Shown in pieces: positions 2,898 to 58,184 of a stretch of DNA of 64,000 nucleotides. The stretch lies in NCBI RefSeq assembly GCF_963921235.1, contig NC_086097.1, positions 49,974,001 through 50,038,000 on the forward strand, given 5' to 3'. Made by a program: the position numbers and the translations under genes. This DNA is from Mobula hypostoma. Taxonomy: Eukaryota. The stretch's first letter is position 1; the number at the start of each line of letters is the position of its first letter. The notes under the pieces are model-generated. The model did not search any database. It was not told where the DNA came from and saw only the letters and a program-made list of their open reading frames with translations.

Positions 2898-5800
2898 TTG
2901 GTGACCCAGATGGTCTAGGACCATTCCAGAGTTATTAAACATGCCACAGGCAGCTGTGGGGCCAAATTTTTGTGTGTATGTAAGGCAGAGGTTGACAGAT
3001 TCTTCTTTCTTTCTTTTTCAATCTTTTTATTAGTTTCATAATAATAAACGTACTATAATATTGATACAAAGTTATTGGGAATACATTGTTGTAGTTAACA
3101 TAGTTAAATATCAGCCCAGTTGACACATGAGCGTTAAATCTCCCAATCATACAGGATACAGAAGAACAATATAAAACAAAAAAAATCTTTAAAAATCATG
3201 AAAAAGGAAAAAATATATATATATTGCGCCCCCCCCCCCAAAAAAACTAACCTATACAGTGTTAATCAACTAAACTAAGAAAAAAAAGACATGGGCTGTT
3301 ATGTAAAATCATAAAAAAAAGAACCATTAGTGTCATTGACTCCGTTCCTCTCAACATATATTACAAAGAAATAGAATAAGTTTGGAAAAGGTCAAATTAC
3401 ATCATATGAAAATATTGAATAAATGGCCTCCGTCTTTTCGAATTTAATAGAGGGATCATGAACAACATTTCTAATGTTTTCCAAATTTAAACACAACATA
3501 GTTTGAGAGAACCAATGAAATGTGGTGGAAGGATTAATCTCTTTCCAATTCAGCAAAATGGATCTTCCGGCCATTAATGTAAGAAATGTAATCATCCGAC
3601 GAGCTGAAGAGGTTAAATGACTTGATTCTATGATTGGTAACCCAAAAATGGCAGTAATAGGTGAGGTTGTAAATCAATATTCAAAACAGTTGAGATAGTA
3701 TCGAAAATATCTTTTCAACAAAGGACATGACCAAAACATGAGTTAAAGAAGCTATCTCGGAGTGACATCTATCGCATATAGGATTTATATGAGAATAATA
3801 ACGAGATAGTTTATCCTCAGACATATGAGCCCTTTGCACTACTTTAAACTGTGTCAATGTATGTTTAGCACATATAGAGGATGAATTAACTAATTGAGGG
3901 ATTTGTTCCCATTTTTCAATTGTACAATAATCTTAAGTTCCCTTTCCCAATCAGTCTTAACTTTATTAGAGACGTCTGGACATATTTTCATAATTGTATT
4001 ATAAATAATTGTTATTACACCTTTCTGAAAGGGATTTAAATCTAAAATTTTTTTCCAAAATATCCATTGAATATAAATTCAGGAAGGTAGGAGAAACAGT
4101 ATTTTAAAAATTTCTAACCTGTAAATATCTAAAAAAGTGAGATCTAGGCAAATTATATTTATTAGATAATTGTTCAAAGGACATGAAACAATTATTCAAA
4201 AATAGATCACAAAATCGTACTATACCTTTAAGTTTCCAAGCCAGATATGCTTGATCGATAGAGGGTTGAAAAAAGAAATTAGATATAATAGGACTTGCTA
4301 AAATAAATTGATTCAACCCAAAACATTTTCAAAATTGAAACCACATACGTAAAGTATGTTTAATTATTGGGTTATCCATTTATTTATACAATTTAGAAAG
4401 AGTAAAGGGAAGCAAAGTCCCTAAAATAGAACCCAATGAAAACCCTTGTAAAGAATTACATTCAAGATTTACCCAATGTGGACTTGAAGTTACGTTCAAG
4501 TCCCATAACCAAAATTTTAAATATCAAATGTTAATTGCCAATAGTAAAATCTAAAATTCAGCAAAGCTAAAGCCAGCCCCCTCCTTTTTAGATTTCTGTA
4601 AATGTTTTTTTACCTCACCTAGGATTTTTGTTCTGCCATATATATGAGGAAATTTTGGAATCAACATTATCAAAAAAGGATTTTGAATGAAAATTGGCAC
4701 CGCTTGAAATACATATAAAAATTTAGGCAAAATAATCATCTTGATAGCATTGATCCGACCGATCAACGACAGAGACACTGGTGACCATTTAGTAAACAAA
4801 AGTTTAATCTGATCAATTAAAGGTAAAAAATTAGCCTTGAATAAATCTTTATGCTTTTTTCATAATTTTAACCCCTAAATATGTAAAAGAGTCAGTAACC
4901 ATTTTAAATGGTAAACATCCATAAATAGGAATCTGCATATTTAGGGGAAATAGTTCACTCTTATTAAGGTTCAATTTATAACCAGAAAAATTGCTAAACT
5001 GAGCCAGCAAAGATAAAATAATGAGAATAGATTTCCCAGGATTAGAGATATATAATAACAAATCATCTGCATATAATAACTTGCGTATTTCATTTCCATG
5101 GGTAATACCAAAAATGTTAGGTGAGTCTTTGATAGCAATTGCTAAAGGTTCAAGGGCAATATCAAATAATAATGGACTAAGAGGGCATCCCTGCCTAGTA
5201 CCCCAAGATAAACGAAAAAAGGGAGATCTTTGATTGTTAGTACAAACCGAAGCTATAGGGGTTTGATATATCAATTTAATCCAAGATATAAATATCGGAC
5301 TAAAATTAAATTTCTCAAACACACTAAATAAATATGGCCATTCAACTCTGTTAAAAGCTTTCACAGCATCTAATGGAATAACACATTTCTGAGTGCGAAG
5401 TAAAGGAGTATAAACAATATTCATTAACCTCCTAATATTAAAAGATGAATAACGATTTTTAACAAATCCTGTTTGGCCCACAGAGATAATTTGAGGTAGT
5501 ACCTTATCTAACCAAGTTGGTAATATTTTAGAAAAAATTTTTGAATCTACTTTCAAAAAGAGATATCGGTCCGTATGATGCACAATCAGTTGGATCTTTA
5601 TTCTTTTTAAGAATTAAAGAAATAGAAACTCCATGAAACGATTGTGGTAACTTACCTAATCTGATTGCTTCTTTAAATATTATAGACAACCAAGGAGAGA
5701 GAATAGAGGAAAGAAACTTTAAAAATTCCCCTGTAAAACCATCTGGACCAGGTGCTTTGCCGGAATTCATTGAAGAAATAACAGCTGTTATTTCTTCATC

Positions 5801-6321
5801 TGTAATAGGAGTTTCTAATGTTAAACAATCTTTGGGTGATAATTTCGGAAAGTTCAATTTCCTTAAAAAGTCATGCATGGTGTTGGGATCATGAGGAAAA
5901 TCAGAATGGTATAAAGAGGTATAAAATTCTTGAAAAGTTTTGTTTATCTCATCATGATCAACTGTCAAAGTGTCATCATGTTTGCAGCTTTTGATAATTT
6001 GACATTTAACCGAAGTAGTTTTCAATTGATTGGCTAATAATTTACCCGATTTATCACCTATGAATATAAAACTCACTTTTAGTTTTCATTAATTGATTTT
6101 CAATCAAGGATGTTAATAATAAGCTGTGTTCCATTTGAAGTTCGATTCTCTGTTTATAAAGCTCCTTACTAGGAGCAATAGAATATTTCTTTAATTTTGT
6201 CAACCAACAAAAGTGTTTCATTCTTAATACGTTTTTTCAAACCAACAGAATAAGGAATAAGGAACACTTTCAGTACACAGGATGAACTCAGCAGGTTGGG
6301 CAGCATCAGTCAGAAATGATG

Positions 6322-9693: not shown

Positions 9694-12391
9694 TTCTTCA
9701 GATTTCACAGTTACAGTTCAAGGAAAAATCAGTAGTATAAAATAAATCTTCTAGTGTAGGTAAAAATTAATTAAGTAAGGGAGATCATAAGTTTAAAAAA
9801 AAGGAACGGTAATGGAGTGAAGCCAAAGACAACCTCACTCCATGAGTGCCTCCTGGAGAATCCCCAGTAGATTCTTGATTGGTCAGGGCATGAAACGATA
9901 CAGGGAGAAGGCAGCAAATTGAGTACTGAGAGGAAAATTGGATCAACCATGATGAAATGGTGGAGCAGACTCAATGGGCCAAATGGCCTAATTCTGCTCC
10001 TATATCTTATGGTCAGATGTCAGCCAATGCAGTCGCTTTGAAACTGCCAGAGTTCTGGGAGCAAAATACCGAGCTTGGTTTGTATAAGCAAAGACCCAAA
10101 TTGTGCTGCGGGAAATCAATGACAACAACACTGAACTCTACTACATGGAAGTGTCACTTGGCAACTCCATGGCTGCAAGAGTGGTGAATCTACTAGAACA
10201 CCTGCTGGAGCACAATAATACCGATCACTGAAAACTCACCTTTTACAGACTTTTGGACCATCGGAGTCAGAGCATGTAAAACAGTTGCTCTCCTTGCCTG
10301 GCCTCAGCAACGCTAAGCAAATGGACCATATGCTATCTCTCCTGGGAAATCACCATCCTTGTTTTATTTTTAAAGAACTCTTCATGCAGCAAAAGCCTGA
10401 TCAAGTTTGCATAGTTCTCATTAATGTGTCCGTGCAAGGCTAAGGGCAGTTTGCTAAAATGGCTGATAGTCTATACTCAGCAAGGCAGTGGGGCATCATT
10501 CCTCAATAACCCTGGTCAGTAAGGCCCCCAACATAAGGATGCCTGTGACCATGAAACAGATGACTCAGAGCCTGTGTTTTTACCACATTTGCTTTGGTAT
10601 GAATGCCAGGAAGTGCCAACTGCCTTGCAGCTTCAACAATGCCAGCACATCGGGACATCAGCGGTCTGTGAACATCATGGGTTCCAGCTGCCAGGGTTGT
10701 CTACTGTTAATTACAGACACCCTTCCAGGGCGATGCTTCCTGTGTGACACGGGTGCTCAAGTGAGTCTGCTGCCATATCGCCTATTGATGAGAAGGCAAA
10801 GAGCAACATAACCTTGCTGGAGGCCACCAACAGCAGCAAGATCCACACTTGCAGGACATGACAGGTGATGCTCTGTTTCAGTGGGTGCTGTTATACATGG
10901 GACTTTGTCCCGGATAAAGTGGCTAGACCTCTGCTCGGTACAGTTTTGCTGATTGCCCAAGGACTATTAGTTGATCTTAGGAACTGCTGGCTTATGGATG
11001 TTAAGGACTTTGGGTCGTTACCCTGCTCCCCCAGTAAGTTTCCCACAACAACTCTGTCAAGCACATGCATCACCGCACGTGAGTTTACTTGAATGCTCTT
11101 ATTGAATTCCCAAACCTCACCAAGCCCGCATTCTCCACTATAGTCACAAAACATGAGGTCGAGCACCACATTTCTACAACTGGCCCACCAGTCCATGCCC
11201 ATGTATGTAGACTGACTCATAAAATCTGGCAACCATGCAGACTGAGTTTGCCAACATGGAAAGACTTGGCATTGTGTGTAGGTCAAATAGCCCCTGGGCT
11301 TCGGCCCTACATTTGGTTCCTAAGTCCGATGCTGGATCCCGCCCATGTGGTGATTACCGACGCCTTAATGAGGTCACCATCTCTGATCGTTACCTGGTCT
11401 CACACATCCAAGTCCTTTTTGCTATGTTTAGCTGGAAACTTAATGTTTTCCAAAGTCGGTCCAGTTAGGGGCTACCATCAGGTGCCTGTGTGCTCAGAAA
11501 ACATTCCCAAGATGGCTGTGATAACCCTGTTTGACCTTTTTAAGTTTCTGCGCATTCTGTTTGGGCTGACAAATGCAGCACTGCTGATGGCCTTTGTCAT
11601 AAAAAGACTCAGATTTTCTTTTTGTTTACCTGGATGACATACTTGTCACCGGTGCTTCCAACGCCGAACACATATTTCATCTCCGCACACTTTTCAGGTG
11701 TTTAAGTGCTTAAGGCAACACAGGTTGATTACTAACCCCACTAAATGCCAGTTTGGGTTGTCAACTGTTGACTTTCTCGGTCATCACATCTCCGCAGAAG
11801 GTGCGAAATCCCTCCCATCAAAGATAGCCACTATTATAGATTTCCCACCATCCCACACTACTGAAAAACTGCTGGAGCTTTTGGGTATGGTGAACTCCGA
11901 TCACAGCTTCATTCTGCGAGCTGCTGAACTTATGCTTCTCCTGTATAGTGTGCTTAAAGGCAATGCTCCTAATCATATGCTTGACTGGTCAACGAACGTG
12001 ACCAGGGCATTTGATGATGCCAAATGAGCTCTTTCTAACATGACACTACTACATAAGAATAGGAGCTGGAATAGGTCATCTGACCCATCGAGCCTGCCCC
12101 GCCATTCAATGAGATCTTGGCTGATCTGTCCATAAACTCAGCTCCATTTACCTGCCTTTTCCCCATAACTCTTAATTCCCCTACTATGTAAAAATCTATC
12201 TAACTGTATCTTAAATATATTTAGTGAAGAAGCCTCAACTGCTTCCCTGGGCAGAGAATTCCACAGATTCACCACACTCTGGGGAAAAACAGTTTCTCCT
12301 CACCTCCATCCTAAATCTTCTCCACTGAATCTCGAGGCAATGTCCCCTAGTTCTAGTCTCACCTACCAACCGAAACAACTTTCCTACTTCT

Positions 12392-14234: not shown

Positions 14235-17213
14235 TCTATCTTATCCTATTCCATTCAAAATTTTGTATGTTTCTATAAGATCCCCTCTCATTCTTCTGAA
14301 TTCCAGACAGTATAGTCCCAGGCGACTCAATTTCTCCTCATAGGTTAACCCCTTCATCTCTGGAATCAACCTGGTGAACCTCCTCTGCACTGCCTCCAAA
14401 GCCAGTATATCCTTCCACAAGTATGGAGACCAGAACTGCACACAGTACTCCAGGTGCGGCCTCACCAGTACCCTGTATAGTTGCAGCATGACCTGCCTGC
14501 TCTTGAATTCAATCCCTCTAGCAATGAAGGCCAACATTCCATTTGCCTTCTTAATAACCTGTTGTACCTGCAAACCAACTTTTTGCGATTCATGAGCAAG
14601 CACTCCCAAGTTCCTCTGCACAACAGCATGCTGCAATCTTTAAATAATAATTTGCTCTTCTATTATTCCTTCTACAGTGGATGATCTCATATGTACCAAC
14701 TTTGTATTCCATCTGCCAGACCTTGGCCTGCTCACTTAACCTACCTATATCCCTCTGCAGACTCTCCACATCCTCTGTACAATTTGCTTTTCCACTCAGT
14801 TTCGTGTCGTCAGCAAATTTTGCTACGCTACACTCAGTCCCCTCTTCCAAATCATCAATGTAAATGGTAAACAGCTGCAGGCCCAGTACTGACCCCTGCG
14901 GCACCCCACTTACCACAGACTGCCAACCGGAGAAACACCCATTTATACCAACTCTCTGCCTTCTTTCGGTTAACCAATCCACTATCCATGCCAATACACC
15001 TCCTCTGACTCTATGCATTCGTATCTTATTTATAAGTCTCTTGGGCGGCACCTTATCAAACACCTTCTGGAAATCCAAGTACAAGACATCCACTTGTTCC
15101 CCTCTATCCACTGCACTCATCATGTCCTCAAAGAACTCCAGTAAGTTTCTCAAACAGGACTTGCCCTTTCTGAATCCACGCTGCGTCTGTCTAATGGAAC
15201 CACTCCTTTCTAAATGTTTCGCTATTTCTTCCTTAATGACAGCTTCAAGCAATTTCTCTGACTACAGATGTTAAACTAACTGGCCTATAGTTGCCCGTCT
15301 TTTGCCTACATCCTTTTTTAAAAAGTGGCGTGACATTTGCTGTCTTCCAATTCGCCAGGACCTGCCCAGAGTCTAGAGAATTTTGGTAAATAATTACCAA
15401 CACATATACTATAACCTCCGCCAGTTCCCTCAGCACCCTGGGATGCATCCCATCTACCTTCAGGCCCTCCAGCTTTCTCATCACGATCTCTTCAGTGACA
15501 GTGATTTTACTGAGGTCCTCACCTCCCATACTGGCACACCTGCTACCCACACACCTACAGCCTCTACTACTGACGCTTCAATCTGTGTTGTGGGTGTTGT
15601 GCGCAAACAGTTGGTCAGAAGCGTTTGGCAGCCACTTGCCTTCTTGAGCCGGCAGCTCCATTCCCCCCTGAAAGGAAATACAGCATGTTTGATCATAAGC
15701 TTCTTGGTCTCTATCTGACTGTCCACCATTTTCATTTTCTTCTGGAGGGTCACCATTTCACAGTGTTCATTGACTATAAACTCCTCATGCACGTGATGGC
15801 CAAAACATCAGACCCTTGGTCTGCACAGCAGCAATGTCAACTGGCCCACATATCAGAATTCACAACTGATATACAGCATATGAAGGGGAAAAATAATGCC
15901 ATGGCCGATTGCCTCTCACAACCAGCCACTGAGACCTTTCACATTGCAATAGACTTTGTCAGCATGGCAGCCCACCAAGCTACTTAGAGGTCCAGGCTTA
16001 CCAAACAGCAACCCCCACCCCCCACCACCAGAATTCACTTAAACTAGCATTATGAGCCTGTTCAGAGCTCGTGGTTGGTTGACATTAAGTTCAGGAAAGC
16101 TGGGATTTCTCTCCTGTGTGATGTCTCAACCGGTTACTCTCACCCCATAGTGCCCACAGACCGGAGGTGGACTCCTTCTGACTCCGCACATGGCTTCTCG
16201 CATACAGGCTGGAAGACCTCACAGACACTGGTTGCACTAAAGTTTGTGTGGCATAGCCTTAGAAGGGATTATGTGATTGGACTTCAGCCTGTATGAAGTG
16301 CCAGTGGGAAAAAAATTGACCGTTGTGTTCATGTACCATTGTTCATGTACTATTGAGGTACCTGAATGGCAATTTGACTATGTCAATATGGACCTTGTTG
16401 GACATCTCCCCCACCTCCCACCACCACAGTTTCAAGCATAACCCTTACCGTGGTGTACTATACCACTAGGTGGCCAGTGTTATCCCTCTAACATCAACAA
16501 CAACAGCTCCAGACGTGACTCGGGCATTCATTGGTCACTGGATTGCTCGGTTTAGCATCCCATCTGATATCTTCTCTGACTGTGGTCTCTAGTTCAATCA
16601 GACCTCTGGGCTGCGGTAGCCCAGAACCTCAGTGTAAGGCTACATACATCACCCGCAGTCCAATGGCCTATGTGAGCAGTTTCACCACTCCTTAAAGGCC
16701 GTTATGAGGGCTTCCCTCATGGATGAGTGTTGGCATGATCATCTTCTGTGGTCCTGCTGGGGCTCAGAACAGCTCCAAAAGAGGATCTGCCATCATCCGT
16801 GGCTAAGTTGGTATACAGGCAGCTGTTCTGAGTGCCAGGTGACTTTCTTCGTGATGCCACGACCACCTGGTTGACCTCTCAACAGCATTCCACCCTCCTC
16901 AGTAAATTCAATTCCTTTTCACTTATTCCTACCTCTCATCATGGTATACAGCACTCTTGGGTTCCTGTTGACTTACATTTTGCCTTGTTTGTTTTTGTCT
17001 GCCACGATGTACACCAGCATCCCCTTAGGACCTCTTATGATGGCCAATTCCGTGGTTTGGAATGGAGAGAAAAGACTTTTATAATAGATAGGAAGGGTAA
17101 ACCTGAATGTATTTCAGAGGCATCTGCTGTTCCTTCACCCATGGAACTTAGTCCGAGCTCTGAACAGGCTCACAATGCTAGTTTCAGTGAATTCTGGGTG
17201 GGGTGGGTTGCTG

Positions 17214-17759: not shown

Positions 17760-18293
17760 TAGAACATAGAACAGTACAGCACAGTACAGGCCCTTCGGCC
17801 CACAATGTTGTGCTGACCCTTAAACTCTGCCTCCTATATATAACCCCCCACCTTAAATTCCTCCATAAGATGGATACTCTAGTAGTCACTTAAATTTCAC
17901 TAGTATATCTGCCTCCACCACTGACTCAGGCAGTGCATTCCACGCACAAACCACTCTCTATGAGTAAAAAAGCCTCTAATATCCCCCTTGAACTTCCCAC
18001 CCCTTACCTTAAAGCCATGTCCTCTTGTATTGAGCAGTGGTGCCCTGGGGAAGAGGCGCTGGCTATCCACTCTGTCTATTTCTCTTAATATCTTATATAC
18101 CTCCATCATGTCTCCTCTCATCCTCCTTCTCTAAAGAGAGTAAAACCCTAGCTCCCTTAGTCTCTGATCATAATGCACGCTCTCTAAACCAGGCAGCATC
18201 CTGGTAAATCTCCTCTGTACCTTTTCCAATGCTTCCACATCCTTCCCATAGTGAGGCGATCAGAATTGGACACAGTACTCCAAGTGTGACCTA
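17760..18293 (-). mobile_element. CR1 3' fragment
   Basis: MRGDMMEVYKILREIDRVD...TRGHGFKV and a TTCTATG-type tail. Confidence 0.85.
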
Positions 18294-18751
18294 TAGAAAA
18301 TAAATTTTTCCTAGTGACTCCATTTAGCCCCTCATATTTTTATCTGCCTCTATTAACTATCCCTTTACTCTATTCAGTTCCAGAGAAAATAACCAGAGTT
18401 TATTTAATCTCTTCATGTAACTTAAAATTTTAAATGTAGAATGAATTATTGAACGTTAACTACTGCTAGCAAATTGTTTTTGTATTTGCCTAAGTTAAGG
18501 TGTTGAGGAATAACATAATTTTGTGGCTTCGTAATCAGAAGCTATCTCTTTTACACTGTTGGTTAAAATTCATCTTTGCTTTTTTTCACCTTACCCTCAA
18601 TGGGAAATTATGTTTTATTAAACAGCTGGTCCTTCTGTAATACAAAGTCAAAATATAGCAGATGCTAAACATTTGAAATCAAACCATAAAATACTGGAAA
18701 TATGTGAGCAGACTGTCTCAGGCATGAAACCAATAACAATATAAGAACCCG

Positions 18752-20600: not shown

Positions 20601-21156
20601 TTAGGATGTGTTTCTAGAATATTCTGGTACTGTAAAGCAAGATAATATATATTGAATAATCTGAAAGGAAAACGAAATGGTGGGAACTTTCAGCGGGTCA
20701 GACAATGTCTGTGGGATTGAAAGAGCGACGGTTAGAGGACTTTTCATCAAATTGCTAAAAGTTGGAAATGAAACGGGGGGGAGGGGAGCCTGAGTGCGGG
20801 GCTGAAGAGATTGATATGCGTAATGCCTGATGAGACTGTGTGGGGAAAATGTTAATAGGAGACGAGGGAATAGTTAAGTACCAGAAGAGCAGAGAGAAAA
20901 AATAGACATCGAGTGCCAGAAATTAGCCACAACTCATCCTCCACCATTCTCATCTCTGGCAGAGGGAGATTTGATTCACCATGTATGGACGGGCAATTTC
21001 TAAACATTATGTAAGAAATTGAGCATGCCGCACTGATAATGATTCAATAGGTTAAATATATCCTGGTCAGTATGGAATAGTTGGCAACTCTCTCTACTTT
21101 CCACTTCCCTTTTCCTCCCTCATTTCCTCCTTTCCCTCCGAATGTTCTTTTGGCAT

Positions 21157-24100
21157 CATTGGGACCTCTTTTGGCACAGGTGTGACCTGTACAAAAAGGA
21201 TGGGTTACACTTGAATCTTAGGGGGACCAATATCCTGGTGGGGAGATTTGCGAGGGTTACTGAGGTGACTTTAAACTAGAATGGTTGAGGGGTGGGAATC
21301 AAACTAAAGAGACTAGGAGAGAGAAGGTTAGTTCACAACAGTGGGATAGGAACAAGTGCAGAGAGACAGAGCGGTGTAAAATGAGGGTAGAAGCAAAAAG
21401 TAGTAAGGTGAAAAGTAAAGGTGGCAGGCCGGCAAATGCAGGGCAAAAATCAACAAGGGCCACTTTTCAGCATTATTGTATAAGGGCTAAGAGTGTTGTA
21501 AAAGCAAGCCTGAAGGTTTTGTGTGTCAATGCAAGGAGCATTGGTAACAAGGTGGATGAATTAAAAGTGCAGATTGTTATTAACGAATATGATATAGTTG
21601 GGATCACAGAGACATGGCTCCAGAGTGACCAAGGATGGGAGCTCAACATTCAGGGATATTCAAAATTCAGGAGGGATAGACATGAAAGAAAAGGAGGTGG
21701 GGTAGCATTGCTGGTTAGAGAGGAGATTAACACAATAGAAAGGAAGGACATTAGCCAGGAGGATGTGGAATCGATATGGGTCGAGCTGCATAACACCAAG
21801 GGGCAGAAAACACTGGTGGGAGTTGTGTACAGGCCACCTAACAGTAGTAGTGAGGTTGGGGATGGCATTAAACAGGAAATTAGAAATGCGTGCAATAAAG
21901 GAACAGCAGTTATAATGGGTGACTTCAATCTACATATCGACTGGGTGAACCAGATTGGTAAGGGTGCTGAGGAAGAGGATTTCTTGGAATGTATGCGGGA
22001 TGGTTTTCTGGACCAACATGTCGAGGAACCAACTAGAGAGCAGGCCATTCTAGACTGGGTATTGAGCAATGAGGAAGGGTTAATTAGCAATCTTGTTGTG
22101 AGAGGCCCTTTGAGTAAGAGTGACCATAATATGGTGGAGTTCTTCATTAAGATGGAGAGTGACATAGGTAATTCAGAAACAAAGGTCTTGAACTTAAAGA
22201 AGGGTAACTTTGAAGGTATGAGATGTGAATTAGCTAAGATAGACTGGCAAATGATACTTAAAGGGTTGACAGTGGATATGCAATGGCAAGCATTTAAAGA
22301 TCGCATGGATGAACTATAACAATTGTTCATCCCAGTTTAGCAAAAGAATAAACCAGGGAAGGTAGTGCACCCGTGGCTGACAAGGGAAATTAGGGATAAT
22401 ATCAATTCCAAAGAAGAAACATATAAATTAGCTAGAAAAGGCGGCTCACCTGAGGACTGGGAGAAATTCAGAGTCCAGCAGAGGAGGACAAAGGGCTTAA
22501 TTAGGAAAGGGTAAAAAGATTATGAGAGAAAACTGACAGGGAACATAAAAACTAACTAAAAGCTTTCATAGATATGTGAAAAAAAGATTGGTTAAGACAA
22601 ATGTAGGTCCCTTACAGTCAGAAACAGGTGAATTGATCATGGGGAACAAGGACATGGCAGACCAATTGAATAACTACTTTGGTTCTGTCTTCATTAAGGA
22701 GGATATAAATAATCTTCCGGAAATAGTCGGGGACAGATGAGATGGAGGAACTGAGGGAAATACATGTTAGTAGGGAAGTGGTGTTAGGTAAATTGAAGGG
22801 ATTAAAGGCAGATAAATCCCCAGGGCCAGATGGTCTGCATCCCAGAGCGCTTAAGGAAGTAGCCCAAGAAATAGTGAATGCATTAGTGATAATTTTTTCA
22901 AAACTCTTTAGATTCTGGACTAGTTCCTGAGGATTGGAGGGTGGCTAATGTAACCCCGCTTTTTGAAAAAGGAGAGAGAGAGAAACGGGGGCATTATAGA
23001 CCAGTTAGCCTAACATTGGTGGTGGGGAAAATGCTAGAGTCAGTTATCAAAGATGTGATAACAACACATTTGGAAAGCGGTGAAATCATCGGACCAAGTC
23101 AGCATGGACTTGTGAAAGGAAAATCATGTCTGACGAATCTCATAGAATTTTTTGAGGATGTAACTAGTAAAGTGGATAAGGGAGAACCAGTGGATATGGT
23201 ATATTTGGATTTTCAAAAGGCTTTTGATAAGATCCCACACAGGAGATTAGTGTGCAAACTTAAAGCACACGGTATTGGGGGTATGGTATTGATGTGGATA
23301 GAGAGTTGGTTGGCAGACAGGAAGCAAAGAGTGGGAATAAACGGGACCTTGTCAGAATGGCACGCAGTGACTAGTGGGGTACTGCAAGGCTCAGTGCTGG
23401 GACCCCAGTTGTTTGCAATATAAATGACTTAGACAAGGGAATTAAATGCAGCATCTCCAAGTTTGCGGATGACATGAAGCTGGGCGGCAGTGTTAGCTAT
23501 GAGGAGGATGCAGGGTGACTTGGATAGGTTAGGTGAGTGGGCAAATTCATGGCAGATGCAATTTAATGTGGATAAATGTGAGGTTATCCACTTTGGTGGC
23601 AAAAACAGGAAAACAGATTATTATCTGAATGGTGGCCGATTAGGAAAAGGGGAGGTGCGACGAGACCTGGGTGTCATTATACGCCAGTCATTGAAAGTGG
23701 GCATGCAGGTACAGCAGGCAGTGAAAAAGGCAAATGGTATGCTGGCATTCATAGCAAGAGGATTCGAGTACAGGAGCAGGGAGGTACTACTGCAGTTGTA
23801 CAAGGCCTTGGTGAGACCACACCTGGAGTATTGTGTGCAGTTTTGATCCCCTAATCTGAGGAGAGACATTCTTGCCATAGAGGGAGTACAAAGAAGGTTC
23901 ACCAGATTGATTCCTTGGGTGGCAGGACTTTCATATGATGAAAGACTGGATCGACTAGGCTTATACTCGCTGGAATTTAGAAGATTGAGGGGGGATCTTA
24001 TTGAAAAGTATAAAATCCTAAAGGGATTGGACAGGCTAGATGCAGGAAGATTGTTCCCGATGTTGGGGAAGTCCAGAACGAGGGGTCACAGTTTGAGGAT

Positions 24101-24376
24101 AAAGGGGAAGCCTTTTAGGACCGAGATGAGGAAAAACTTCTTCACACAGAGAGTGGTGAATCTGTGGAATTGTCTGCCACAGGAAACAGTTGAGGCCAGT
24201 TCATTGGCTATATTTAAGAGGGAGTTAGATATAGCCCTTGTGGGTGAAGGGATCAGGGGGTATGGAGAGAAGGCAGGTATAGGGTTCTGAGTTGGATGAT
24301 CAGCCATGATCATACTGAATGGCGGTGCAGGTTCGAAGGGCCGAATGGCCTACTCCTGCACCTATTTTCTATATTT
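21157..24376 (+). mobile_element. CR1 LINE: end of ORF1 esterase plus entire decayed ORF2
   Basis: HWDLFW..DLYKKDGLHLN..GTNIL (SGNH esterase end), EN NARSIGNK/GITETWL/GDFN/SDHN, RT and C-terminal motifs, TTTTCTAT tail. Confidence 0.93.
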
Positions 24377-24379
24377 TCT

Positions 24380-25360
24380 GCACTCCTGGCATCAGTCTAT
24401 TTATTTTCCTCCTTCACTAACTCATTCCCTCGCCATCCCTTTCCCTTCCTTCCATCCACTGTTCCCTCTTCTGGTCTCATTCTATTCTCCTTTTCCTTCC
24501 CCTCATACAGTCTCCTTCCCTCTTTTCCTGATCTCACTCCATCCTTTCCCACCCCCAGTCACAAGCTAGTATTGACTTTTCTCCCCAAATCTTTACATTC
24601 GCCTTTCGTCACACCTCCCTTCTCGCTGGTCAGACAACTCCGCAGTTGCCTGCTTACCTGTTTAATGAATGCACCTTCTTCCCCTTGTGTGATATCCCTT
24701 CTCATTTCTCCCTCTCATTTCTGCGCCAACCATTTTTTTCCCTCCTGATTTTATTCACATCCTGGTCTCCCTCCCCTTCTGTCTCCTGCCTTCCCAGTCT
24801 CCATTCTTAAGTGGTCTCCATCCTTCCCCTTTTGGTGTTTTTCTTCCTCCATCTCTGCTCCTCTCATGATCAATCTTCTATGTTCTTATCTTTATTCCTA
24901 CTCTCGTTCTGTTCTCCCTTGCTATGGTGTCTCACCCTGCACTCCCATCCTGTAGTGTCCACCTCCATTCCCCTCTACCCTTTCCTTCTCATCCCTTGTC
25001 ATCCTTGATGTCCTTGCACCCATTCCTCTCCTCCCTTGTCCCAATGCCTCCCCTTTCCTCCACTGGCAAACCCTCCCTTCTTCTTTCCCCCTCTTTCTGT
25101 GGTGTACCTCCCTCCATCTGGCAAGTGTGAATTGGGACATCTGTATCTTTCTCTCCACCTTCATCTCGCTCTTCTGGTTCCCCCCAGTTACCATAGTCTG
25201 TGTCACTCCATCCTCTTCACTGTCATCTCCAAATCCTTTTTTTTACTCCACTTTCCTCTTTCGTTTTCCTATCCCCTTTCACATTTTCTTCCTCTTTCTC
25301 TCCCTCTTCTGAAGTCCTCCTTCCTCCTTCTTGTCTTTTCACTTCCTTCATGCTCCTTCC
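24380..25360 (+). repeat. About 1 kb pyrimidine-rich low-complexity tract
   Basis: Almost all C/T on the + strand with no fixed period; translated ORFs are F/S/L/P-rich noise. Confidence 0.8.
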
Positions 25361-27011: not shown

Positions 27012-29241
27012 ATTGTGCAATGAACCAGAATTGATTAGCGATCTTAAGGTAAAAGACCCCTTAGGGGAAGTGATCATAATATGAATGAATTCACCCTGAA
27101 ATTTGAGAAGGGGAAGCTAAAGTGAGATGTATTAGTCTTACAGTGGAGTAAAGGGCATTACAGAGGGATGAGGGAGGAGTTGGCCAGAATTGATTGGAAA
27201 AGAACACTGGCAGGGATGACAGCAAAGCAGCAATGGCTGGAATTTATGGAAGCACAGGATATATACATACATCCCAAAGAGGAAGAAGTATTCTGAAGGA
27301 AGAATGACACAACCATGGCTAACAAGAGAAGTCAAAGCCAGCATAAAAGCCAAAGAGAGGGCATATAATAGAGTAAAAATTAGTGTGAAATTAGAGGATT
27401 GGTAAGCTTTTAAAAACCATCAGAAGGCAACTGAAAAGTCATTAAGAAGGTAAAGATGGAATACAAAAGCAAGCTACCCAGTAATATTAAAGAGGATACC
27501 AGAAGTTTCTTCAGATACATAAACTTTAAAAGAGAGGTGAGAGTGGATTTTGAACCACTGGACAACAACGCTGGAGAGGTAGTAATAGGGGACAACAAAA
27601 GGCGGACAGACTGAATAAGTATTTTGCATCAGTCTTCATGATAGAAGACACTAGCAGAATGGTGGAAGTTCCAGGTGTCAGGGGGCATGAAGTATGTAAA
27701 GTTACCAAAGCTAGAGTGAAGGTTCTTGGGAAACTGAAAGGTCTGAAGGTAGATAAGTCACCTGGACCTAGAGTTCTGAAAGAGGTGGCTGAAGAGAGCA
27801 TGGAGGCATCAGTAATGATCTTTCAAGAATCACTAGATTCTGACATGGTTTTGAAGACTGGAAAATTGCAAACACCACACAGCTCTTCAAGAGGGTAGAG
27901 AGGCAGAAGAAAGGAAACTATAGGCCAATTAGTCTGACTTCAGTGGTTGGGAGGATGTTGGAATCAATTATGAAGGATGAGATATCAGTGTACTTGGAGT
28001 CACATGATAAAATAGAATGTAGTCACAAATTTGTTGGAATTCTTTGAAGAAATAACAAGCAGAGTAGACAATGGAGAATCAGTTGATATTGTGTACTTGG
28101 ATTTTAAGAAGACCTTTGCTAAGATACCACACATGAGGTTGCTTAACAAGCTATGAACCCGTGGTATTACAGAAAAGATTCTAGCATGGATAAAGCAGTG
28201 GTTGATTGGCAAGAACCAAAGAATGGGAATAAAGGGAGCCTTTTCTGGCTGGCTGCCATGGACTAGTGGTGTTCCACAGGGGCTGTGTTGGGACTGATTT
28301 CTTTTTACGTTATATGTTAATGATTTGGATGATGGAATTGATGGCCTTGTTGCAAAGTTTGCAGAAGATATGAAGGTAGGTGGAGGGGCAGGTAGTTTTG
28401 AGGAAGTAGAGAGGCTTAAACAGATTGGGAGAATGGACAATGAAATACAATGTTGGGAAGTGTATGGTCATGCACTTTGGTAGAAGAAATGAAAGGATTG
28501 ATTATTTTCTAAATGGAGAGAAAATACAAAAAAAAACTGAGGTGCATAGGGACTCGGGAAGTCCTGTGCAAGATTCCTCAAAGGTTAATTTGTAGGTTGA
28601 GTCTGTGGTGAGGAAGGAACATGCAATGTTAACATTCATTTCAAGAGGACTAGCATATAAAAGCAAGGATATAATGTTGAAATTTTATAAAGCACTGGTG
28701 AGGCCTCACTTGGGCCCCTCATCTTAGAAAGTAGGTGCTGAAACTGGAGAGTTCAAAGGAGGTTCATGGAAATGATTCTAGCATTAAATGGGTTGTTATA
28801 TGAAGAGCATTTGATGGCTCTGGGCCTGAATTCACTGGAATTCAGAAGAATGAGGGGTGACCTCACTGAAACCTATCGAAAGGCCCTGATAGAGTGGATG
28901 TGGAGAGGATATTTCCAATGGTGGGAGAGTGTAAGACCAAAGGATATAGCCTCAGACTAGAGGGGCGTCCTTTAGAACAGAGATGAGGAGGACTTTCCTT
29001 AGCCAGAGGGTGGTGAATTTGTGGAATTCTTTGCCACAGGCAGCTGTGGAGACCAAGTCTTTATGTATATTTAAGGCACAGGTTTATAGACTCTTGATTG
29101 GTCAGGGCATGAAGGGATACAGGGAGAAGGCAGGAGATTGGAACTGAGAGGAAAATCAGATCAGCCATGATGAAATGGCGGAGTAGACTCAATGGGCCAA
29201 ATGGCCTATTTCTGCTCCTAATGTCTTATAGTCTTATGGTC
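27012..29241 (+). mobile_element. Decayed CR1 LINE (ORF2, late EN through 3' tail)
   Basis: LKGLKVDKSPGP, NYRPISLTSVV, KFAEDMKVG, LEFRRMRGDL; TCTTATGG-type tail. Confidence 0.88.
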
Positions 29242-36817: not shown

Positions 36818-37332
36818 ACCCAAACACTGGGCCTAGATGACCAGATCACAGCTGATCGTTCAACCAGCCTGCAAGTTTACATATTACGGCTTCTTATCTG
36901 AAGATGGTCTCAGGTTTAGCAGACCATCAGCAGAAACCTCTTATGTCCATGATCAATTGCTCTGATTAAGCTATCCCTGAACCAATTCACCAAACAGTTC
37001 ACGAAATGCTGACTAATAGGACAGTCTCCCAGAATTGCCACCTCCATTCCTACAACCACATGGCTAGAACAAAGACTTTTGCTTTGTCTGTTTCTACAGC
37101 TCTTGCCTCATTGCTGTACACTGATCTGTAGATTGTACTTCTTTCTGGCCAATGCGGTTAACCAAGAAGCTTTAGCATTAAAAGCATCTATAAAAAATCT
37201 TCTGTGAAAATAAGTAAGTAAATATTACCAAAGATATAATATGCAAACTTTGATTATGCACAAATGATGTGTAAAATACTAATTTTTCTTGTCCTGTTCT
37301 CATTTTCAGATATTAATGTTATTTTGTAATTC

Positions 37333-38467
37333 TACAAGGCATTTGATGAGGTACAGCATGCAAAGCTTATTGAGAAAGTAAGGAGGCATGGAATCCAAGG
37401 GGATACTGCTTTGTGGATCCAGAACTGGCTTGCCACAGAAGGCAAAGAGTGGTTGTAGTCGGGTCATATTCTGCATGGAGGCCGGTCCACTGGTGTGCCT
37501 CAGTGATCTGTTCTGCGACCCCTACTCTTTGTGATTTTTATAAATGACCTGGATGAGGAAGTGGAGGGATGGGTTAGTAAATTTGCTGATGACACAAAGG
37601 TTGGAGGTGTTGTGGATAGTGTGGAGGGCTGTCAGAGGTTACAGCAGGACATTGATAGGATGCAAAACTGGGCTGAGAAGTGGCAGATGGAGTTCCACCC
37701 AGATAAGTGTGAGGTGGCTCATTTTGGTAGGTCAAATATGATGGCAGAATATAGCATTAATGGCAAGACTCTTGGCAGTGTGGAGGATCAGAAGAATCTT
37801 GGGGTCCGAATCCAAAGGGCACTCAAAGCTGCTATGCAGGTTGACTCTGTGGTTAAGAAGGCATACGGTGCATTGGCCTTCATCAATCATGGGGTTGAGT
37901 TTAAGAGCTGAGAGCTAATGTTGCAGCTATATAGGACCCTGGTCAGACCCCACTTGGAGTACTGTGCTCAATTCTGGTCGCCTCACTACAGGAATGACAT
38001 GGAAACCATAGAAAGGGTGCAGAGGAGATTTACTAGGATGTTGCCTGGATTGGGGAGCATGCCTTATGAGAATAGGTTGAGTGAACTCGGCCTTTTCTCC
38101 TTGGAGTGAAGGAGGATGAGAGGTGACCTGACAGAGGTGTACAAGATGATGAGAGGCATTGATCGTGTGGATAGTCAGAGGCTTTCTCGTGTTGAAGTGG
38201 CTCGCACAAGAGGGCATAGTTTTAAGGTGCTTGGAAGTAGGTACAGAGGAGATGTCAGGGGTAAGTTTTTTACGCAGAGAGTGGTGAGTGCGTGGAATGG
38301 GCTGCTGGCGGCGGTGGTGGAGGTGGAAACGATAGGATCTTTTGAGACGTTCCTGGATGGATACATGGAGCTTAGAAAAATAGAGGCTATGGGTTAGCCT
38401 AGGTAGTTCTAAGGTAAGGACATGTGGGCCGAAGGGCCTGTAGGTTTTTTATGTTTCTATGTTTCTA
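37333..38467 (+). mobile_element. 5'-truncated CR1 LINE
   Basis: FINDLD, KFADDTKVG, LVRPHLEYCAQFWSP, FFTQRVV; (TTTCTATG)n tail. Confidence 0.9.
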
Positions 38468-39215: not shown

Positions 39216-40361
39216 GTGGGTAAAATTCAACAGTTATAATTCCATCCATTGAAAACATGTTCAGTTTTAATTAGATAATAACGTGTAAACAATGTACATG
39301 CTCATGCTGGTATGGTATTAACCAGCTGTTACACAAAACTAGTCAGAAGTGTGAATAGGGGAGGAGACTTGGAAGAGAGTCCTTAAACCAGCAGTTACTA
39401 TCTTCTCACTACAAAGATTCTACCAATTTTTTTTCTTGGACTCTGTTTTTAAGCATTCATTTTGCCCGCATACCCAAAAATGATATTAGGGCTCTAGAAT
39501 TGGTAGAGGATCATGACTGACATTCTTAAATAGGTTGCCAATTGAAACAAGTGGGCATGCACATTGCATGGGTTACCCATTATTCTGGATTGTCTACAGT
39601 GGAGTATGGTTCTTCTGAACCCAGGAGACCATTTCTTTGAAGCTTTCTGCTGCTCAAAGAAACCTTCAGCTTGATGAAGTTAAAGCAACACAGGGATCCT
39701 TGCTGGGATCCTCAGCTGTTCACAAAGATAAATATTATTAACTTAGATAAAAGACTGTGTGTAAAATATCTAAGTGTGCTGACGATACAAAGTTAGTTTG
39801 AAAAGTAGTTGTGAGATGATCCAAGGGCTCTACAAAGAGGTTTATGCTGGTTATTCAAGAAATCAATAAAGTGAAATATGAGGGTACAAGTGCTGCTCGA
39901 AATAATAAAACAGAAAGAAGTTATACGATTTTCAGGTAGAGCAGGATTCTCGCTGTGCGAGCTCATCAGTTGCAGTAAGTAAGCATCCATGTACAAGTGA
40001 TTAGGAATGCAAATGCCATATGTTGTCTTTTATGCAGAGGATGGCTGGCTGAGACTGTACAAGGCTACATTCTTTCTTCAGCATGAAGATCATACTTGGA
40101 GAACTGTATGAAGTTTTGATCTCAAATCTGAACAAAGAATATACTGCTTTATGGTCAGTGATGTGCAGATTGACAGGATTGATCCTTGGAATGAGAGAAT
40201 TACAGACATCCCACCTCTCCTGGAAGTTCCGGGAGTCTCCCGCATATCGATAGTGGCTCCCTGATGCTCGGAAATTATATACAATATCCTGGAAATAGAT
40301 TTTTTTGAGCGGGAGGGGGAGAGAGAGAGCAAGCATCCTGATTGGTCTCTCGTCATGCTAA

Positions 40362-41536
40362 GAGTGGTTTCCAACCACCGGGCTGCGAGGAAGCGATATG
40401 ATTTGGCGATATGAAACAATATGAGTCAGCTGCATCTTTCCTCAATCCCTGTCATGCACTGTTGAATTTTAACGTATGCGAGGTCATCAGTGATCCAAGA
40501 CGTGCAAAGGAATGGGTCTGTGACCCACTTGTGAATGTCCCCAGTGAATCATCCATGTCAGCGCGGGAAAAAGATCAACTCCTTCAGCTTGAAAATGACA
40601 GCGGGCTGAAAAGTATGTTTGACATAACATCTCTGCCAGCATTCTGGATCAAAGTCAAGGCTGAATATTCTGAGATAGCCACAAAAGCACTGAAAACGTT
40701 GCTTCCATTTCCAACATGTTTCTGCGAAGCGGAGTTTTCTGCAATGAATGCAACGAAAACTAAATTGCGGAATGGACTGGACATAAGGAACCCCCTTCAA
40801 GTATCGTTGTCTCCCATCATTCCTCGATAGGACCATGCAGGAAAACAAGCCCAGGCCTCCCACTGACTCAGCGATACAGGTATTAGTGTGTTGCAATGAT
40901 TTTATATGTTCATACGAGGAAAATTATGCGCTGTCTGTTTAATATCCAAACGTTACTTAAAATGTTATGATGTTATTGAGTTATAAGTGACTTATAACTC
41001 AGTGGTCCCCAACTTCCAGGCCACAAAGAATACAGCGGTGACCGGAACACACCCAGCACATCTTTAAGAAAAAAAGCCAAAATAAACAAGCTAATTAATT
41101 AGGTGCTGCCTGGCACGTAAGTGTCGGCCCAGACCAGAGGTGATCGTCTCTGATCTGGGCCGACGTTTACATGCCGGGCAGCACCTCATCAATTAGCCTG
41201 TTTATTTCGGCTTTTTTCTTAAAGATGTGCTGGGTTCGTTCTGGCCACCGCTGTACCCTGCATTCTTCGCGGCCCAGAAGTTTGGGACCACTGTTATAAT
41301 TGACTTATCACTACATTCATGTGAGGAAAATATGCGCTGTGTGTTTAATATTAAATTCGTTAGATAAACCCCTTTAGAAACAAAATCGAGTGTATTAGCC
41401 ACTTACAAGTGACTTATAGTTGACTTATCACCTATATTCCGGTTACATTTAACACCCCCCCCCCGGGTTGGCCAGTCTGCAAGAATATTGTCAATATTAA
41501 ACCGGTCTGCGGTGCAAAACAGGTTGGGGACCCCTG
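40362..41536 (+). mobile_element. hAT-Charlie/Buster deletion derivative
   Basis: Transposase C-terminus FWIKVKAEYSEIATKALKTLLPFPT..CEAEFSAM..TKTKLRNGLD (40411-40830); right end GGTTGGGGACCCCTG. Left TIR is degenerate and no matching TSD was seen. Confidence 0.8.
41000..41293. mobile_element. Palindromic Charlie-type MITE
   Basis: Nearly the whole 294 bp is an inverted repeat (CAGTGGTCCC...GGGACCACTG); 8-bp TSD TTATAACT/TTATAATT. Confidence 0.9.
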
Positions 41537-41989
41537 ATTTAAACTAGCTGACTAGCTGCCGAGGAGCTACGCAATTGATGTCCTACGTGATGAGGCCAAA
41601 CTCCTTGTAGACTGCTTAAAGTCGTAATAGAATAAACATGATAATATAATATAAGTACGTACTTTAATGTCACATTTGCTGTACATACCCAACTTGGTTT
41701 ACAGATTAGACAAAATCACTAAACAAAGTATTACATACACCCTTGGAGGTGGACGGGGGGGGGGATTGTTGGGTGGGGGGATATGGGGTTGGGGGGGCAG
41801 GGGTGCTACCTTCCTGAAATGGTGGTGCTACTTTCCTGAAATGAGATTTTGCAGGGTGGGATGTCTGGGATTAGACTGAAGACTGGCCAATGCCTATGAA
41901 ATTCAGAAGAATGAATTGTTATCATACTGCACCAACATTCAAGTTTCAGAGAGACATTAACTGTTAGAGAAATGCAAAAATGCAAATGA

Positions 41990-43202
41990 TTCAATCATGG
42001 GCTGATCCAATTCTTCCAGTCATCCCCACTCCCCTGCCTTCTCCCCATACCCTTTGATGCCCTGGCTAATCAAGAATCTATCTATCTCTGCCTTAGATAC
42101 ACCCAATGACTTGGCCTCCACAGCTGCACGTGGCAACAAATTCCACAGATTTACCACCCTCTGATTAAAGTAATTTCTCCGCATCTCTGTTCTAAATGTA
42201 CATCCTTCAATCTTGAAGTCTTTCCCTCTTGTTCTGGACTCCCCTACCATGGGAAATAACTTTGCCATATCTAATCCGTTCAGGCCTTTTAACATTTGGA
42301 ATGTTTCAATGAGATCCCCCGTCATTCTCCTGAACTCCAGGGAATACAGCCCAAAAGCTGCCAGACGTTCCTCATACGGTAACCCCTTCATTCCCGGAAT
42401 CATTTTCGTGAATCTGCTCTGAACCCTATCCAATGCCAATATATCCTTTCTAAAATAAGGAGCCCAAAACCGCACATAATACCCTAAGTGTGGTCTCACG
42501 AATACCTTATAGAGCCTCAACATCACATCCCTGCTCTTATATTTTATACCTCTAGAAATGAATGCCAACATTACCTTTGCCTTCTGCACCACCAACTCAA
42601 TCTGGAGGTTAACCTTTAGGGTTTCCTACACAAGGGCTCCCAAGTCCCTTTGCATCTCTGCATTTTGAATTCTCTCCCCATCTAAATAATAGTCTGCCCA
42701 TTTATTTTTCCACAAAAGTGCATGACCATACACTTTCTGACATTGTATTTCATTTGTCACTTCTTTGCCCATTCCCCTAAACCACCTAAGTCTCTCTGCA
42801 GGCTCTCTGTTTCCTCAGCACTTCCTGCTCCTCCACCTATCTTTGTATCATCCGCAAATTTAGCCACAAATCCATTAATCCCGTAGTCCAATTCATTGAC
42901 ATACATCGTAAAAAGCAGCGGTCCCAACACCAACCCCTGTGGAACTCCACTGGTAACCGGCAGCCAGCCAGGATAGCATCCCTTTATTCCCACTCTCTAT
43001 TTTCTGCTGATCAGCCAATGCTCCACCCACGCTAGTAACTCACCTGTAATTCCACGGGCTGTTATCTTGCTAAGCAGCCTCATGTGCAGCACCTTGTCAA
43101 AGGCCTTTTGAAAATCCAACTACACCACATCTACTGCATCTCCTTTGTCTACCCTACTTGTAATTTCCTCAAAAAATTGCAGTAGGTTAGTCAGGCAGGA
43201 TT
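41990..43202 (-). mobile_element. CR1 fragment
   Basis: GVPQGLVLGPLLF, KFADDTKIG, LEFRRMTGDL, FNQRVVNLWN. Confidence 0.9.
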
Positions 43203-43209
43203 CTGCACC

Positions 43210-45310: not shown

Positions 45311-45459
45311 TTAAGAGTGCAAAAGAAGGAACTATTGGGTAGTGTCTATAGGTTCATGGACCATTCAGAAATCTGATGACAAAGGAAAGAAGCTGTTTTT
45401 GAATCATCGAGTGTAGGTTTTCAGGCTCTTTTATCTCCTTCCTGATGGAAGTTACAACA

Positions 45460-47225
45460 AGTATTCTAAAGGGACGATGAGTGTGGCTAACAAGGGAAGT
45501 CAAAGACAGCATAAAAGCAAAAAAGAGGAATATAATATAGTAAAAAATTAGTGGGAAGTTAGAGGATTGAAAAGATTTTAAAAATCCATAAGGAGAGAAA
45601 AGATGAATTATGAAGGTAAGCTGGCCAGTAAAAGAAAATACTAAATGTTTTCTTCAAATATATGAAGAGGAAAAGAGAGGCAAGAGTGTATATCAGACCA
45701 CTGGAAAATGATGCTGTAGAGGTAGTAATGGAGACCAAGAAATGGCAGGCGAATTTAATAAGTATTTTGCTTCAGTCTTTGCTGCGGAAAACACCAGCAG
45801 TGCACTAGAAATTCTAAGTAAGTGTAGTTGCTGTTACTAACGAAATGTGCTTGGAAAGTTGAAAGGTCTGATGGTAATTAAGTAATCTGCACCAGATGGA
45901 CTATATCCCTGGGTGAAAAAAAAGAGGGAGCTGAAGAGATTGTGGTGGTCTTAGTCATAATCCTTGAGGAATCTCTACATTCTGGGATAGTTTCAGAGGA
46001 CTGGAAAATTGCAAATGTCACTCCACTCTTTAAGAAGGGAGGAAGGCCGAAGAAAGGAAATTATAGGTTAGTTTGGCTGACTTCAGTGGTTGGGAAGGTG
46101 TTGAAGTCCATTATTAAGGATGACATTTTGGGGTACTTGGAACACATGATAAAATAGGTCATAGTCAGCGTGGTTTCCTTAAGGGGAAATCTTGCCTGAC
46201 AATTCTGTTGGAATTCTTTGAGGAAATAACAGACAGAGTAGACAAAAGAGAGTTGGTGGATGTTGTTTATTTGGATTATCAGAAGGCCTTTGACAAGGTG
46301 CTGCACATGAGGCCGCTTAACAAGATAAGAGCCTATGGTATTACAACAAAGATACTAGCATGGATAGAAGATTAGCTGACTGCAGGAGGCAAAAAGTCAG
46401 AATAAAAGGGGCCTATTCTGGTTGGCTGAGGGTGATGGAATTGATGGCTTTGCAGCCAAGTTTGCTGATGATACAAAGGTAGGTGGAGAAGCAGGTAATG
46501 TTGAGGAAGCAGATAATAGAAAAAGAAGTGGCAGATGGAATATAGTGTAGTGAAGAAGAAGGTCAGGCACTTTGAAAGGAGGAATAAAGGCATAGATTAT
46601 TTTCTAAATGAGAATCAAAGGTGCAAAGGGATTTGGGAGTCCTAGTGCAGGAGTCCCTAAAGGTTGAGTCAGAAGTAAGGAAGGCAAATGCAATTATTAA
46701 CATTTATTCAAGAGAGCAAGAATATAAAAGCAAGGATGTAAACCTGAAGTTTTATAAGATATTGGTTAGACTGCACTGTATTGAGAGCAGTTTTGGGCCA
46801 CTTATCTAAGATGGGATGTGCTGGCATTGGAGAGGGTCTGGAGCAGGTGCACGAGAATGATCCCTGGAATGAAAAGGTTAATGTATGAGGAATGTTTGAT
46901 TGCTCTGGGTCTACACTCACTGTAGTTTAAAAGAATGAGGGGGATCTCATTGAAAACTATCGAATATTGAAAGACCTAGATAGAGTTGACATGGAGAGGA
47001 TCTTTCCTATATTGAGTGAATCTAGGAACAGAGGGCACAACTGCAGAAAAGAAGGACATCCCTTTAGAACAGAGATGATGAGGAATTCCTTTAGCCAGAG
47101 GGCGGTGAACCTGTGCAATTCATTGCCACAGACGGCTGTGGAAGCCAAGTCATTGGGTATACTTAAAACAGATGTTGACAGGTTCTTGAATAGTCCAGGC
47201 ATCAAAGGTTATGGGGAGAAGGCAT
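45460..47225 (+). mobile_element. Decayed CR1 fragment
   Basis: EDWKIANVTPLFKKG, QRDLGVLV, FSQRAVNL..SLP. Confidence 0.88.
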
Positions 47226-47229
47226 GAAC

Positions 47230-58075: not shown

Positions 58076-58184
58076 TGCACCTCTTCCTAGAGATGCTGCC
58101 TGGCCTGCTGCGTTCACCAGCAACTTTGATGTGTGTTGCTTGAATTTCCAGCATCTGCAGAATTCCTGTTGTTGGCGTTTTTAA
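58042..58184 (+). mobile_element. 143-bp Penelope-end insertion: hammerhead plus tail
   Basis: 14-bp TSD ATCGAACTTGCCTC (58028-58041, 58185-58198); near-identical to 14105-14234. Confidence 0.9.

Follow-up and report, generated by a model that had tools for sequence, protein, structure and literature searches.

A conserved in-phase U_UUA_AAC heptamer at the ORF1/ORF2 junction of vertebrate CR1 LINEs, a probable signal for programmed -1 frameshifting

Introduction

The translation of ORF2 in LINEs is usually explained by reinitiation. A CR1 copy in a genomic window of Mobula hypostoma (the window being the whole stretch of DNA analysed, 64,000 nucleotides) raises the question of whether ribosomes may reach ORF2 by another route, namely by slipping on a heptamer at the very end of ORF1. 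Judging from the relatives compared below, programmed -1 ribosomal frameshifting is the likely means by which CR1 LINEs of vertebrates that have an esterase ORF1 express their ORF2. The junction heptamer is a real and widely conserved signal, with frameshifting as its probable mechanism. A search of the available literature yielded no proposal of -1 frameshifting for CR1, though one may stand in older work (Kapitonov and Jurka 2003, Kojima 2005, Haas 1997, Kajikawa 1997) or in Repbase.

Anatomy of the junction in the window

The first CR1 copy in the window is a dead, 5'-truncated CR1 LINE with an esterase ORF1 from a cartilaginous fish. Its features are:

21148-21279, + strand: 3' end of the CR1 ORF1 (C-terminus of the SGNH esterase, DGLHL...VTLN*), the copy being 5'-truncated
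21261-21263, + strand: TGA that shuts the -1 (ORF2) frame two codons 5' of the heptamer and bounds the entry window
21270-21276, + strand: slippery heptamer U_UUA_AAC in the ORF1 phase, assigned from sequence and conservation
21277-21279, + strand: ORF1 stop, TAG in this copy and abutting the heptamer; other subfamilies have TAA or TGA
21281-21283, + strand: nearest ATG past the stop, in the +1 frame, with an ORF of 8 codons only
21282-21296, + strand: G-rich tract, a candidate stimulator; the conserved G-run at +11 to +15 is 21287-21291
21270-21521, + strand: charged linker of 84 codons, stop-free in the -1 frame, with its first in-frame ATG at 21381
21522-22319, + strand: APE endonuclease region of ORF2, starting at the CVNARS motif and ending at the first premature stop (Exo_endo_phos, E 2.5e-12)
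22320-24281, + strand: remaining ORF2 (reverse transcriptase), broken into four segments in three frames with seven stops

Just the last 43 codons of ORF1 are retained in this copy and the reverse transcriptase is broken. The ORF1 tail is 81% identical over 43 aa to a ray protein (P0010), the named relatives are rays and sharks, and the junction matches consensus rows labelled CR1 in the available part of a published supplement (PMC13343379). A full-length ORF1 relative (P0007) matches Pfam Lipase_GDSL_2, and the ORF1 esterase matches PDB 4C1B (E 1.4e-36).

The first-pass annotation had placed an in-phase U_UUA_AAC just before the ORF1 stop, and this is what the copy contains, since ORF1 reads ...EVTLN* and its TTTAAAC stands in X_XXY_YYZ phase. 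It had also identified the -1 frame as that of ORF2, open to 22319 through the endonuclease with a first AUG at 21381, all of which is borne out; the frame is open from 21264 and contains the APE endonuclease. As the TGA at 21261-21263 closes the -1 frame upstream, entry into ORF2 is confined to five codons in this copy. The ATGs at 21281 (+1 frame), 21436 and 21529 (both frame 0) all lie out of the ORF2 frame, and the first of these opens only its 8 codons in the +1 frame and thus cannot give ORF2. Immediately beyond the 3' end of the copy, positions 24380-25360 form a strongly pyrimidine-rich segment of about 1 kb.

Allowing up to one mismatch, the sequence TTTAAACTAG has six matches in the window against 6.9 expected. 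A single match is therefore not beyond chance, and the weight of the argument rests on conservation and phase in relatives. An exact TTTAAACTAG match at 41538 was rejected as a CR1 junction because it falls outside any such junction; the surrounding region (40200-41650) contains short ORF remnants and repeated segments and by eye resembles a decayed DNA transposon.

A second copy, belonging to another CR1 subfamily, lies on the opposite strand:

52656-53033, - strand: ORF1 esterase tail ending REGLN*
52659-52665, - strand: heptamer TTTAAAC, followed by TAA at 52658-52656 and GGGGG at 52648-52644
52463-52655, - strand: linker, its -1 frame open for 59 codons and then closed by a stop

The two copies are 72% identical over the junction, and the endonuclease of the second, a decayed copy, is out of phase by one base. 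Further 5'-truncated CR1 ORF2 fragments lacking a junction are scattered through the window (12058-12391, 14235-15544, 17889-18301, 27012-29238, 37318-38394, 41994-43203, 45456-47233, 58184-58657 and 60248-60980), together with more distant reverse transcriptase fragments at 5080-5968, 47653-48204 and 54739-55065.

Conservation of the heptamer

Relatives were gathered by protein alignment of ORF1 on metagenome contigs without use of the motif, which gave at least 113 confirmed loci among 345 candidates. The best 80 of these were kept and comprise 17 vertebrate-type loci with a junction, 41 other-type loci with an ORF1 end, and 22 without an ORF1 end that were dropped. Vertebrate-type junctions were chosen by eye, and together with the two window copies they make up a set of 19. 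The 17 loci are not independent, being mostly one amniote-like group with many members from one data set; most resemble amniote ORF1s, which end in RALN like snake and turtle proteins.

Across the 19 junctions the seven columns of the heptamer agree in 19, 19, 19, 19, 18, 16 and 15 cases; TTTA is invariant and the exact TTTAAAC occurs in 14. Upstream of it in the same set, agreement is 279 of 466 comparisons (60%) at third codon positions and 730 of 972 (75%) at first and second ones. In four vertebrate-type ORF1s a T is found at 57 of 269 four-fold sites, TTA encodes 7 of 98 leucines and AAC 21 of 36 asparagines; from this codon usage, a requirement for Leu-Asn alone would yield the heptamer spelling at about 0.009 per lineage, or about once per hundred. 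That the heptamer does not tolerate synonymous change, as the frameshift proposal had demanded, is upheld by the first T and the TTA, each present in all 19 junctions although TTA is a rare leucine codon. Counted against frameshifting are the five junctions of 19 in which the exact heptamer is missing and the homologous ORF1s with other endings described below. The stop column has G at its third position in 15 of the 19, the common form being TAG.

A separate run aligned 8816 contigs, which drop rare variants, over 21150-21600; 33 letter differences reach 5%, none of them within 21258-21287, and no insertion or deletion is listed.

At the protein level ORF1 ends in LN in 17 of 21 close homologues. 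In a broader set of 170 proteins, 112 end 20-45 residues past the DGxH block, 65 of them with xLN, 8 with QGN and 39 otherwise. The x codon of xLN can end in U in 64 of the 65 proteins, whereas at the next five positions upstream between 4 and 20 of the 65 cannot.

The taxonomic range was taken from the available part of the PMC13343379 supplement by a motif-led search of the first 400 letters of each entry, which shows range and not frequency. It matched 23 places, and the 21 inspected resolved by eye into 18 junctions, two 5' regions and one unrelated sequence. The 18 consensus rows with heptamer and stop come from sharks, rays, a chimaera, bowfin, halosaur, coelacanth, frog, lizard and crocodilians. 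A search that gave four rows, all bearing the heptamer, was left out of the counts as its terms had been chosen after these rows were seen. Two dogfish entries of the same supplement (SquAca_CR1-3 and SquAca_CR1-18) carry TTTAAAC and a stop followed by G-rich sequence upstream of ORF1, which also weighs against the frameshift reading.

Searches of viral contig and plasmid collections found no relative. The sole match in a genome contig collection was a CR1 ORF1 esterase fragment without the junction, on a 506-base contig of a named bacterial assembly (L081, 49% identity), which is probably contaminating vertebrate DNA.

Phase of ORF2 and the linker

Over the 30 codons past the stop, 13 of 16 junctions have an open -1 frame, against three of 16 for each of the other frames; three more junctions were too short to score. 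In 11 of 13 copies the -1 frame is closed on the 5' side, one to five codons before the heptamer. Eleven vertebrate-type junctions from the best 80 relatives and the window reach the endonuclease motif. Five of them have the endonuclease in phase behind a stop-free linker (99, 111, 153, 252 and 264 nt) and include the best-preserved copies; the remaining six are out of phase, and five of these carry other lesions in the form of additional stops, short open frames or broken ORFs. The predicted -1 phase of ORF2 hence stands for the five best-preserved copies, but not for six of the 11 pairs, which are mostly decayed. The outlier is L012, in which the frames of ORF1 and of the endonuclease are long and open, the heptamer carries two mutations and the endonuclease lies in the +1 frame. 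Its -1 frame nonetheless starts with the family peptide, and the locus may represent decay or an exception.

The first in-frame methionine is found at codon 5 in five of 16 junctions, at codons 19-44 in seven, past a stop in one and nowhere within the sequence in three. Coding constraint, which the first-pass annotation had suggested testing between the heptamer and the first AUG, did not emerge at the amino-acid level: 15 of 16 differences in the linker are non-synonymous and one is synonymous. A comparison of 42 ORF2 proteins gave no common N-terminus. One mutant copy that is already shifted upstream (P0015, a gene model) reads FKL...YLNARS in a single frame. Among the 42 ORF2 proteins, P0188 and P0195 carry FKL upstream of the endonuclease, P0195 with a Met before it, which is a hint at protein level only; P0187, P0188, P0194 and P0199 are CR1-like endonuclease-reverse transcriptases labelled 'ribonuclease P/MRP protein subunit RPP40', apparently by misannotation.

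The downstream stimulator

A run of G at +11 to +15 is conserved in the vertebrate-type set, with 15-17 of 17-18 sequences carrying G in each column, positions that are synonymous in the -1 frame included. The first window copy has an A at 21288, where 94% of the family depth has G. The usual spacer behind a slippery site measures 5-9 nt, and the conserved run, beginning 11 nt past the heptamer, lies beyond it. No conserved hairpin or other fold was found in the 10 loci in which one was sought (z-scores from -2.3 to +1.3), nor did these loci share a pseudoknot half or long-range pairing partner for the G-run, pseudoknots having been assessed only indirectly. A two-tier quadruplex is the lowest-energy fold in three of 10 loci (the second window copy or winB; L006; and L011), with G4Hunter-like scores of 0.6-2.4.

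The G-rich tract that had been put forward as the stimulator is thus confirmed as a conserved element, but it starts past the usual spacer and does not fold. The absence of a canonical structured stimulator is the main weakness of the frameshift reading, and as no fold was found the site would work like a canonical structure-stimulated frameshift site without being classed as one.

Proposed mechanism

It is proposed that the majority of ribosomes would terminate at the end of ORF1 and release ORF1p, and that a minority would slip back by one base on the Leu and Asn codons (UUA AAC) into the -1 frame. The predicted product is a fusion of ORF1p, linker, endonuclease and reverse transcriptase with the junction ...TLN-LEW..., and it would lack the F and K that appear when the -1 frame is translated conceptually. 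The pause would probably come from the adjacent stop codon and/or the G-run, the latter acting via a bound protein or a two-tier G-quadruplex and not as a classical pseudoknot; to our knowledge no protein is known to bind the CR1 G-run. A low slip rate would hold ORF2p scarce, and the copies in the window would be dead relics of this frameshift design. As for the gag-pol-like fusion that had been predicted from the first copy, the conservation tests mostly favour it, but no structured stimulator is found and reinitiation is possible in subfamilies that bear an AUG.

Alternative explanations

Reinitiation after termination is considered unlikely as the general route. In this model ribosomes would resume translation in the -1 frame at the ORF1 stop or immediately past it, either on an AUG (in the form UAAUG or UAG-NN-AUG) or independently of AUG, with the conserved A/U-rich block and the G-run as the signals for doing so. 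There is precedent in SART1 and L1, as described in the available text of PMC3708506, PMC5009743 and PMC1965478, and some junctions would suit it. An in-frame AUG lies 2 nt past the stop in five of 16 (L002, L006, L012, L024 and L037), the codon in this position is GTG or TTG in L043, L018 and L029, and three of the 18 consensus rows, read by eye in the available supplement of PMC13343379 (ScyCan_CR1-1a, SquAca_CR1-17a and SquAca_CR1-6c), have UAAUG as an overlapping stop-start in the ORF2 frame right after the heptamer. The failure to find a stimulator fold in 10 loci also speaks for reinitiation. However, the same position is occupied by TGG, AGG, TCG or TCC, and not AUG, in both window copies (winA and winB) and in L001, L009, L011, L013 and L039. 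The first window copy lacks a SART1-type AUG at the ORF1 stop in the ORF2 frame, its nearest AUG being in the +1 frame. In L001, where ORF1 is open for 304 codons, no AUG precedes the endonuclease motif and the first methionine of the ORF2 frame is codon 44, after YLNARS, the Asn of which appears to match the essential N17 of Zorro3 (from the available text of PMC1965478). Moreover, elements that bear an AUG still retain the heptamer, and reinitiation does not predict the in-phase X_XXY_YYZ pattern. Slippage and reinitiation could coexist in some subfamilies.

It is improbable that the block is kept because the protein needs a C-terminal Leu-Asn, or because a DNA or RNA motif such as an internal promoter or protein-binding site happens to resemble a slippery site. 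LN is nearly invariant in vertebrate ORF1s, the identical 10-mer occurs in the two 5' regions among the available consensus rows, and the G-run is conserved without a fold. Yet neither the wobble T nor the rare TTA codon can be held in place by a need at the protein level, the alignment of the solved ZfL2-1 esterase reaches no further than profile position 304 of 311, and other endings are found in 39 of the 112 homologues. Under a promoter model L001 would have no start codon, and the -1 phase would not be expected.

That ORF2 is produced from an RNA that is spliced or initiated internally, with TTTAAACTAG as branch point and 3' splice site, is most improbable, as the TAA and TGA forms of the stop lack the AG acceptor that the common TAG form supplies (G in 15 of 19) and a polypyrimidine tract is missing. 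Transcriptional slippage was set aside for want of a long homopolymer.

Relatives with other junction signals

All 41 other-type loci among the best 80 of at least 113 relatives lack TTTAAAC where ORF1 ends. The stop of 23 of them is TGA with a C behind it. The endonuclease motif could be located in 17 other-type loci, where it is in frame 0 in 12 (10 of them stop-free), in +1 in four and in -1 in one. Two loci missed by the pattern used (L050 and L059) have TGA CTA; their ORF1s are open for 528 and 441 codons, and ORF2 stays open in the same frame as far as the contig reaches. In L050, L053 and L054 no Met precedes the endonuclease motif. TGA-CTA or TGA-CCA together with a same-frame ORF2 was seen in L050 (position 2733), L059 (position 1326), L053, L054, L027, L035, L052, L055, L057, L058, L066 and L078. 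The UGA-C relatives are candidates for stop-codon readthrough, and UGA CUA is the readthrough context of Sindbis virus according to the available text of PMC13517186. If two distinct recoding signals yield one and the same fusion, this would suggest that it is the fusion itself that is kept.

Esterase ORF1s of a divergent group end in QGN (P0079, P0081, P0082, P0086, P0092, P0094, P0105, P0114 and P0147), an ending that at protein level would fit a G_GGA_AAC slippery site. Also at protein level, P0120 ends in SKN, for which A_AAA_AAC is possible. The available text of PMC5009743 counts both U_UUA_AAC and G_GGA_AAC with the heptamers most prone to slippage. The evidence is evenly balanced on the wider proposition that CR1-type LINEs with an esterase ORF1 generally make a gag-pol-like ORF1-ORF2 fusion through interchangeable recoding, by U_UUA_AAC slippage in jawed vertebrates, perhaps by G_GGA_AAC, and by UGA-C readthrough, the vertebrate site being driven by the stop and an unstructured G-run, a type of stimulator not yet described.

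Comparison with known systems

If ORF2 is indeed expressed by frameshifting, ORF2p would carry the dimerising, membrane-binding ORF1 module, ORF2 annotations that start at the first AUG would be wrong, and the ORF1:ORF2 ratio would be set as in retroviruses. CR1 could then supply a natural G-run stimulator, and would be a possible target of host frameshift inhibitors, of which Shiftless is one.

In PRRSV the stimulatory motif lies about 10 nt downstream of the slip site. Frameshifting there is stimulated by proteins, nsp1beta and PCBP (available text of PMC5009743), and CR1 resembles this system in having a short, unstructured, homopolymer-rich motif downstream. The two differ in that the CR1 motif is a G-run and that of PRRSV is C-rich. 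Synthetic G-quadruplex stimulators exist, natural use not being known in 2016 as far as the same available text goes (PMC5009743).

Recoding has been proposed from sequence alone for the ORF2 of other retroelements without LTRs. Two-ORF Penelope-like elements are described with a frameshift and a pseudoknot (PMC8557442), and a +1 frameshift or readthrough is suggested for Paramecium non-LTR elements (PMC5405496). Unlike CR1, these elements belong to other clades and those of Paramecium would use +1 slippage or readthrough; the available text of neither source names the heptamer or CR1.

CR1 is the dominant retrotransposon in most vertebrates according to the available part of PMC13343379. The esterase LINEs of this type combine an ORF1 of zinc-finger-like, coiled-coil and SGNH esterase parts with an APE-RT ORF2 (PMC3905857, PMC4120745, PMC13343379; PDB 4C1B), and the first copy in the window is a member. 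The available text of these three papers contains no mention of a junction frameshift.

Like SART1, which uses UAAUG, and L1, which is AUG-independent, CR1 would have a bicistronic LINE RNA and scarce ORF2p (available text of PMC3708506, PMC10275272, PMC5009743 and PMC1965478), and some CR1 subfamilies share with SART1 a UAAUG or a nearby in-frame AUG. In contrast to both, CR1 keeps the in-phase heptamer with or without an AUG, and its product would be a fusion and not a free ORF2p.

The closest parallels are retroviral gag-pol and coronavirus ORF1a/1b. CR1 departs from these in being a non-LTR element, in having a G-run at +11 where no pseudoknot or hairpin was found, and in showing no protease that would release the enzymes. 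It is like them in the arrangement of a structural ORF upstream of a polymerase ORF in the -1 frame that lacks a conserved start, and its heptamer and phase are the same as those of IBV, which uses U_UUA_AAC as given in the available text of PMC5009743.
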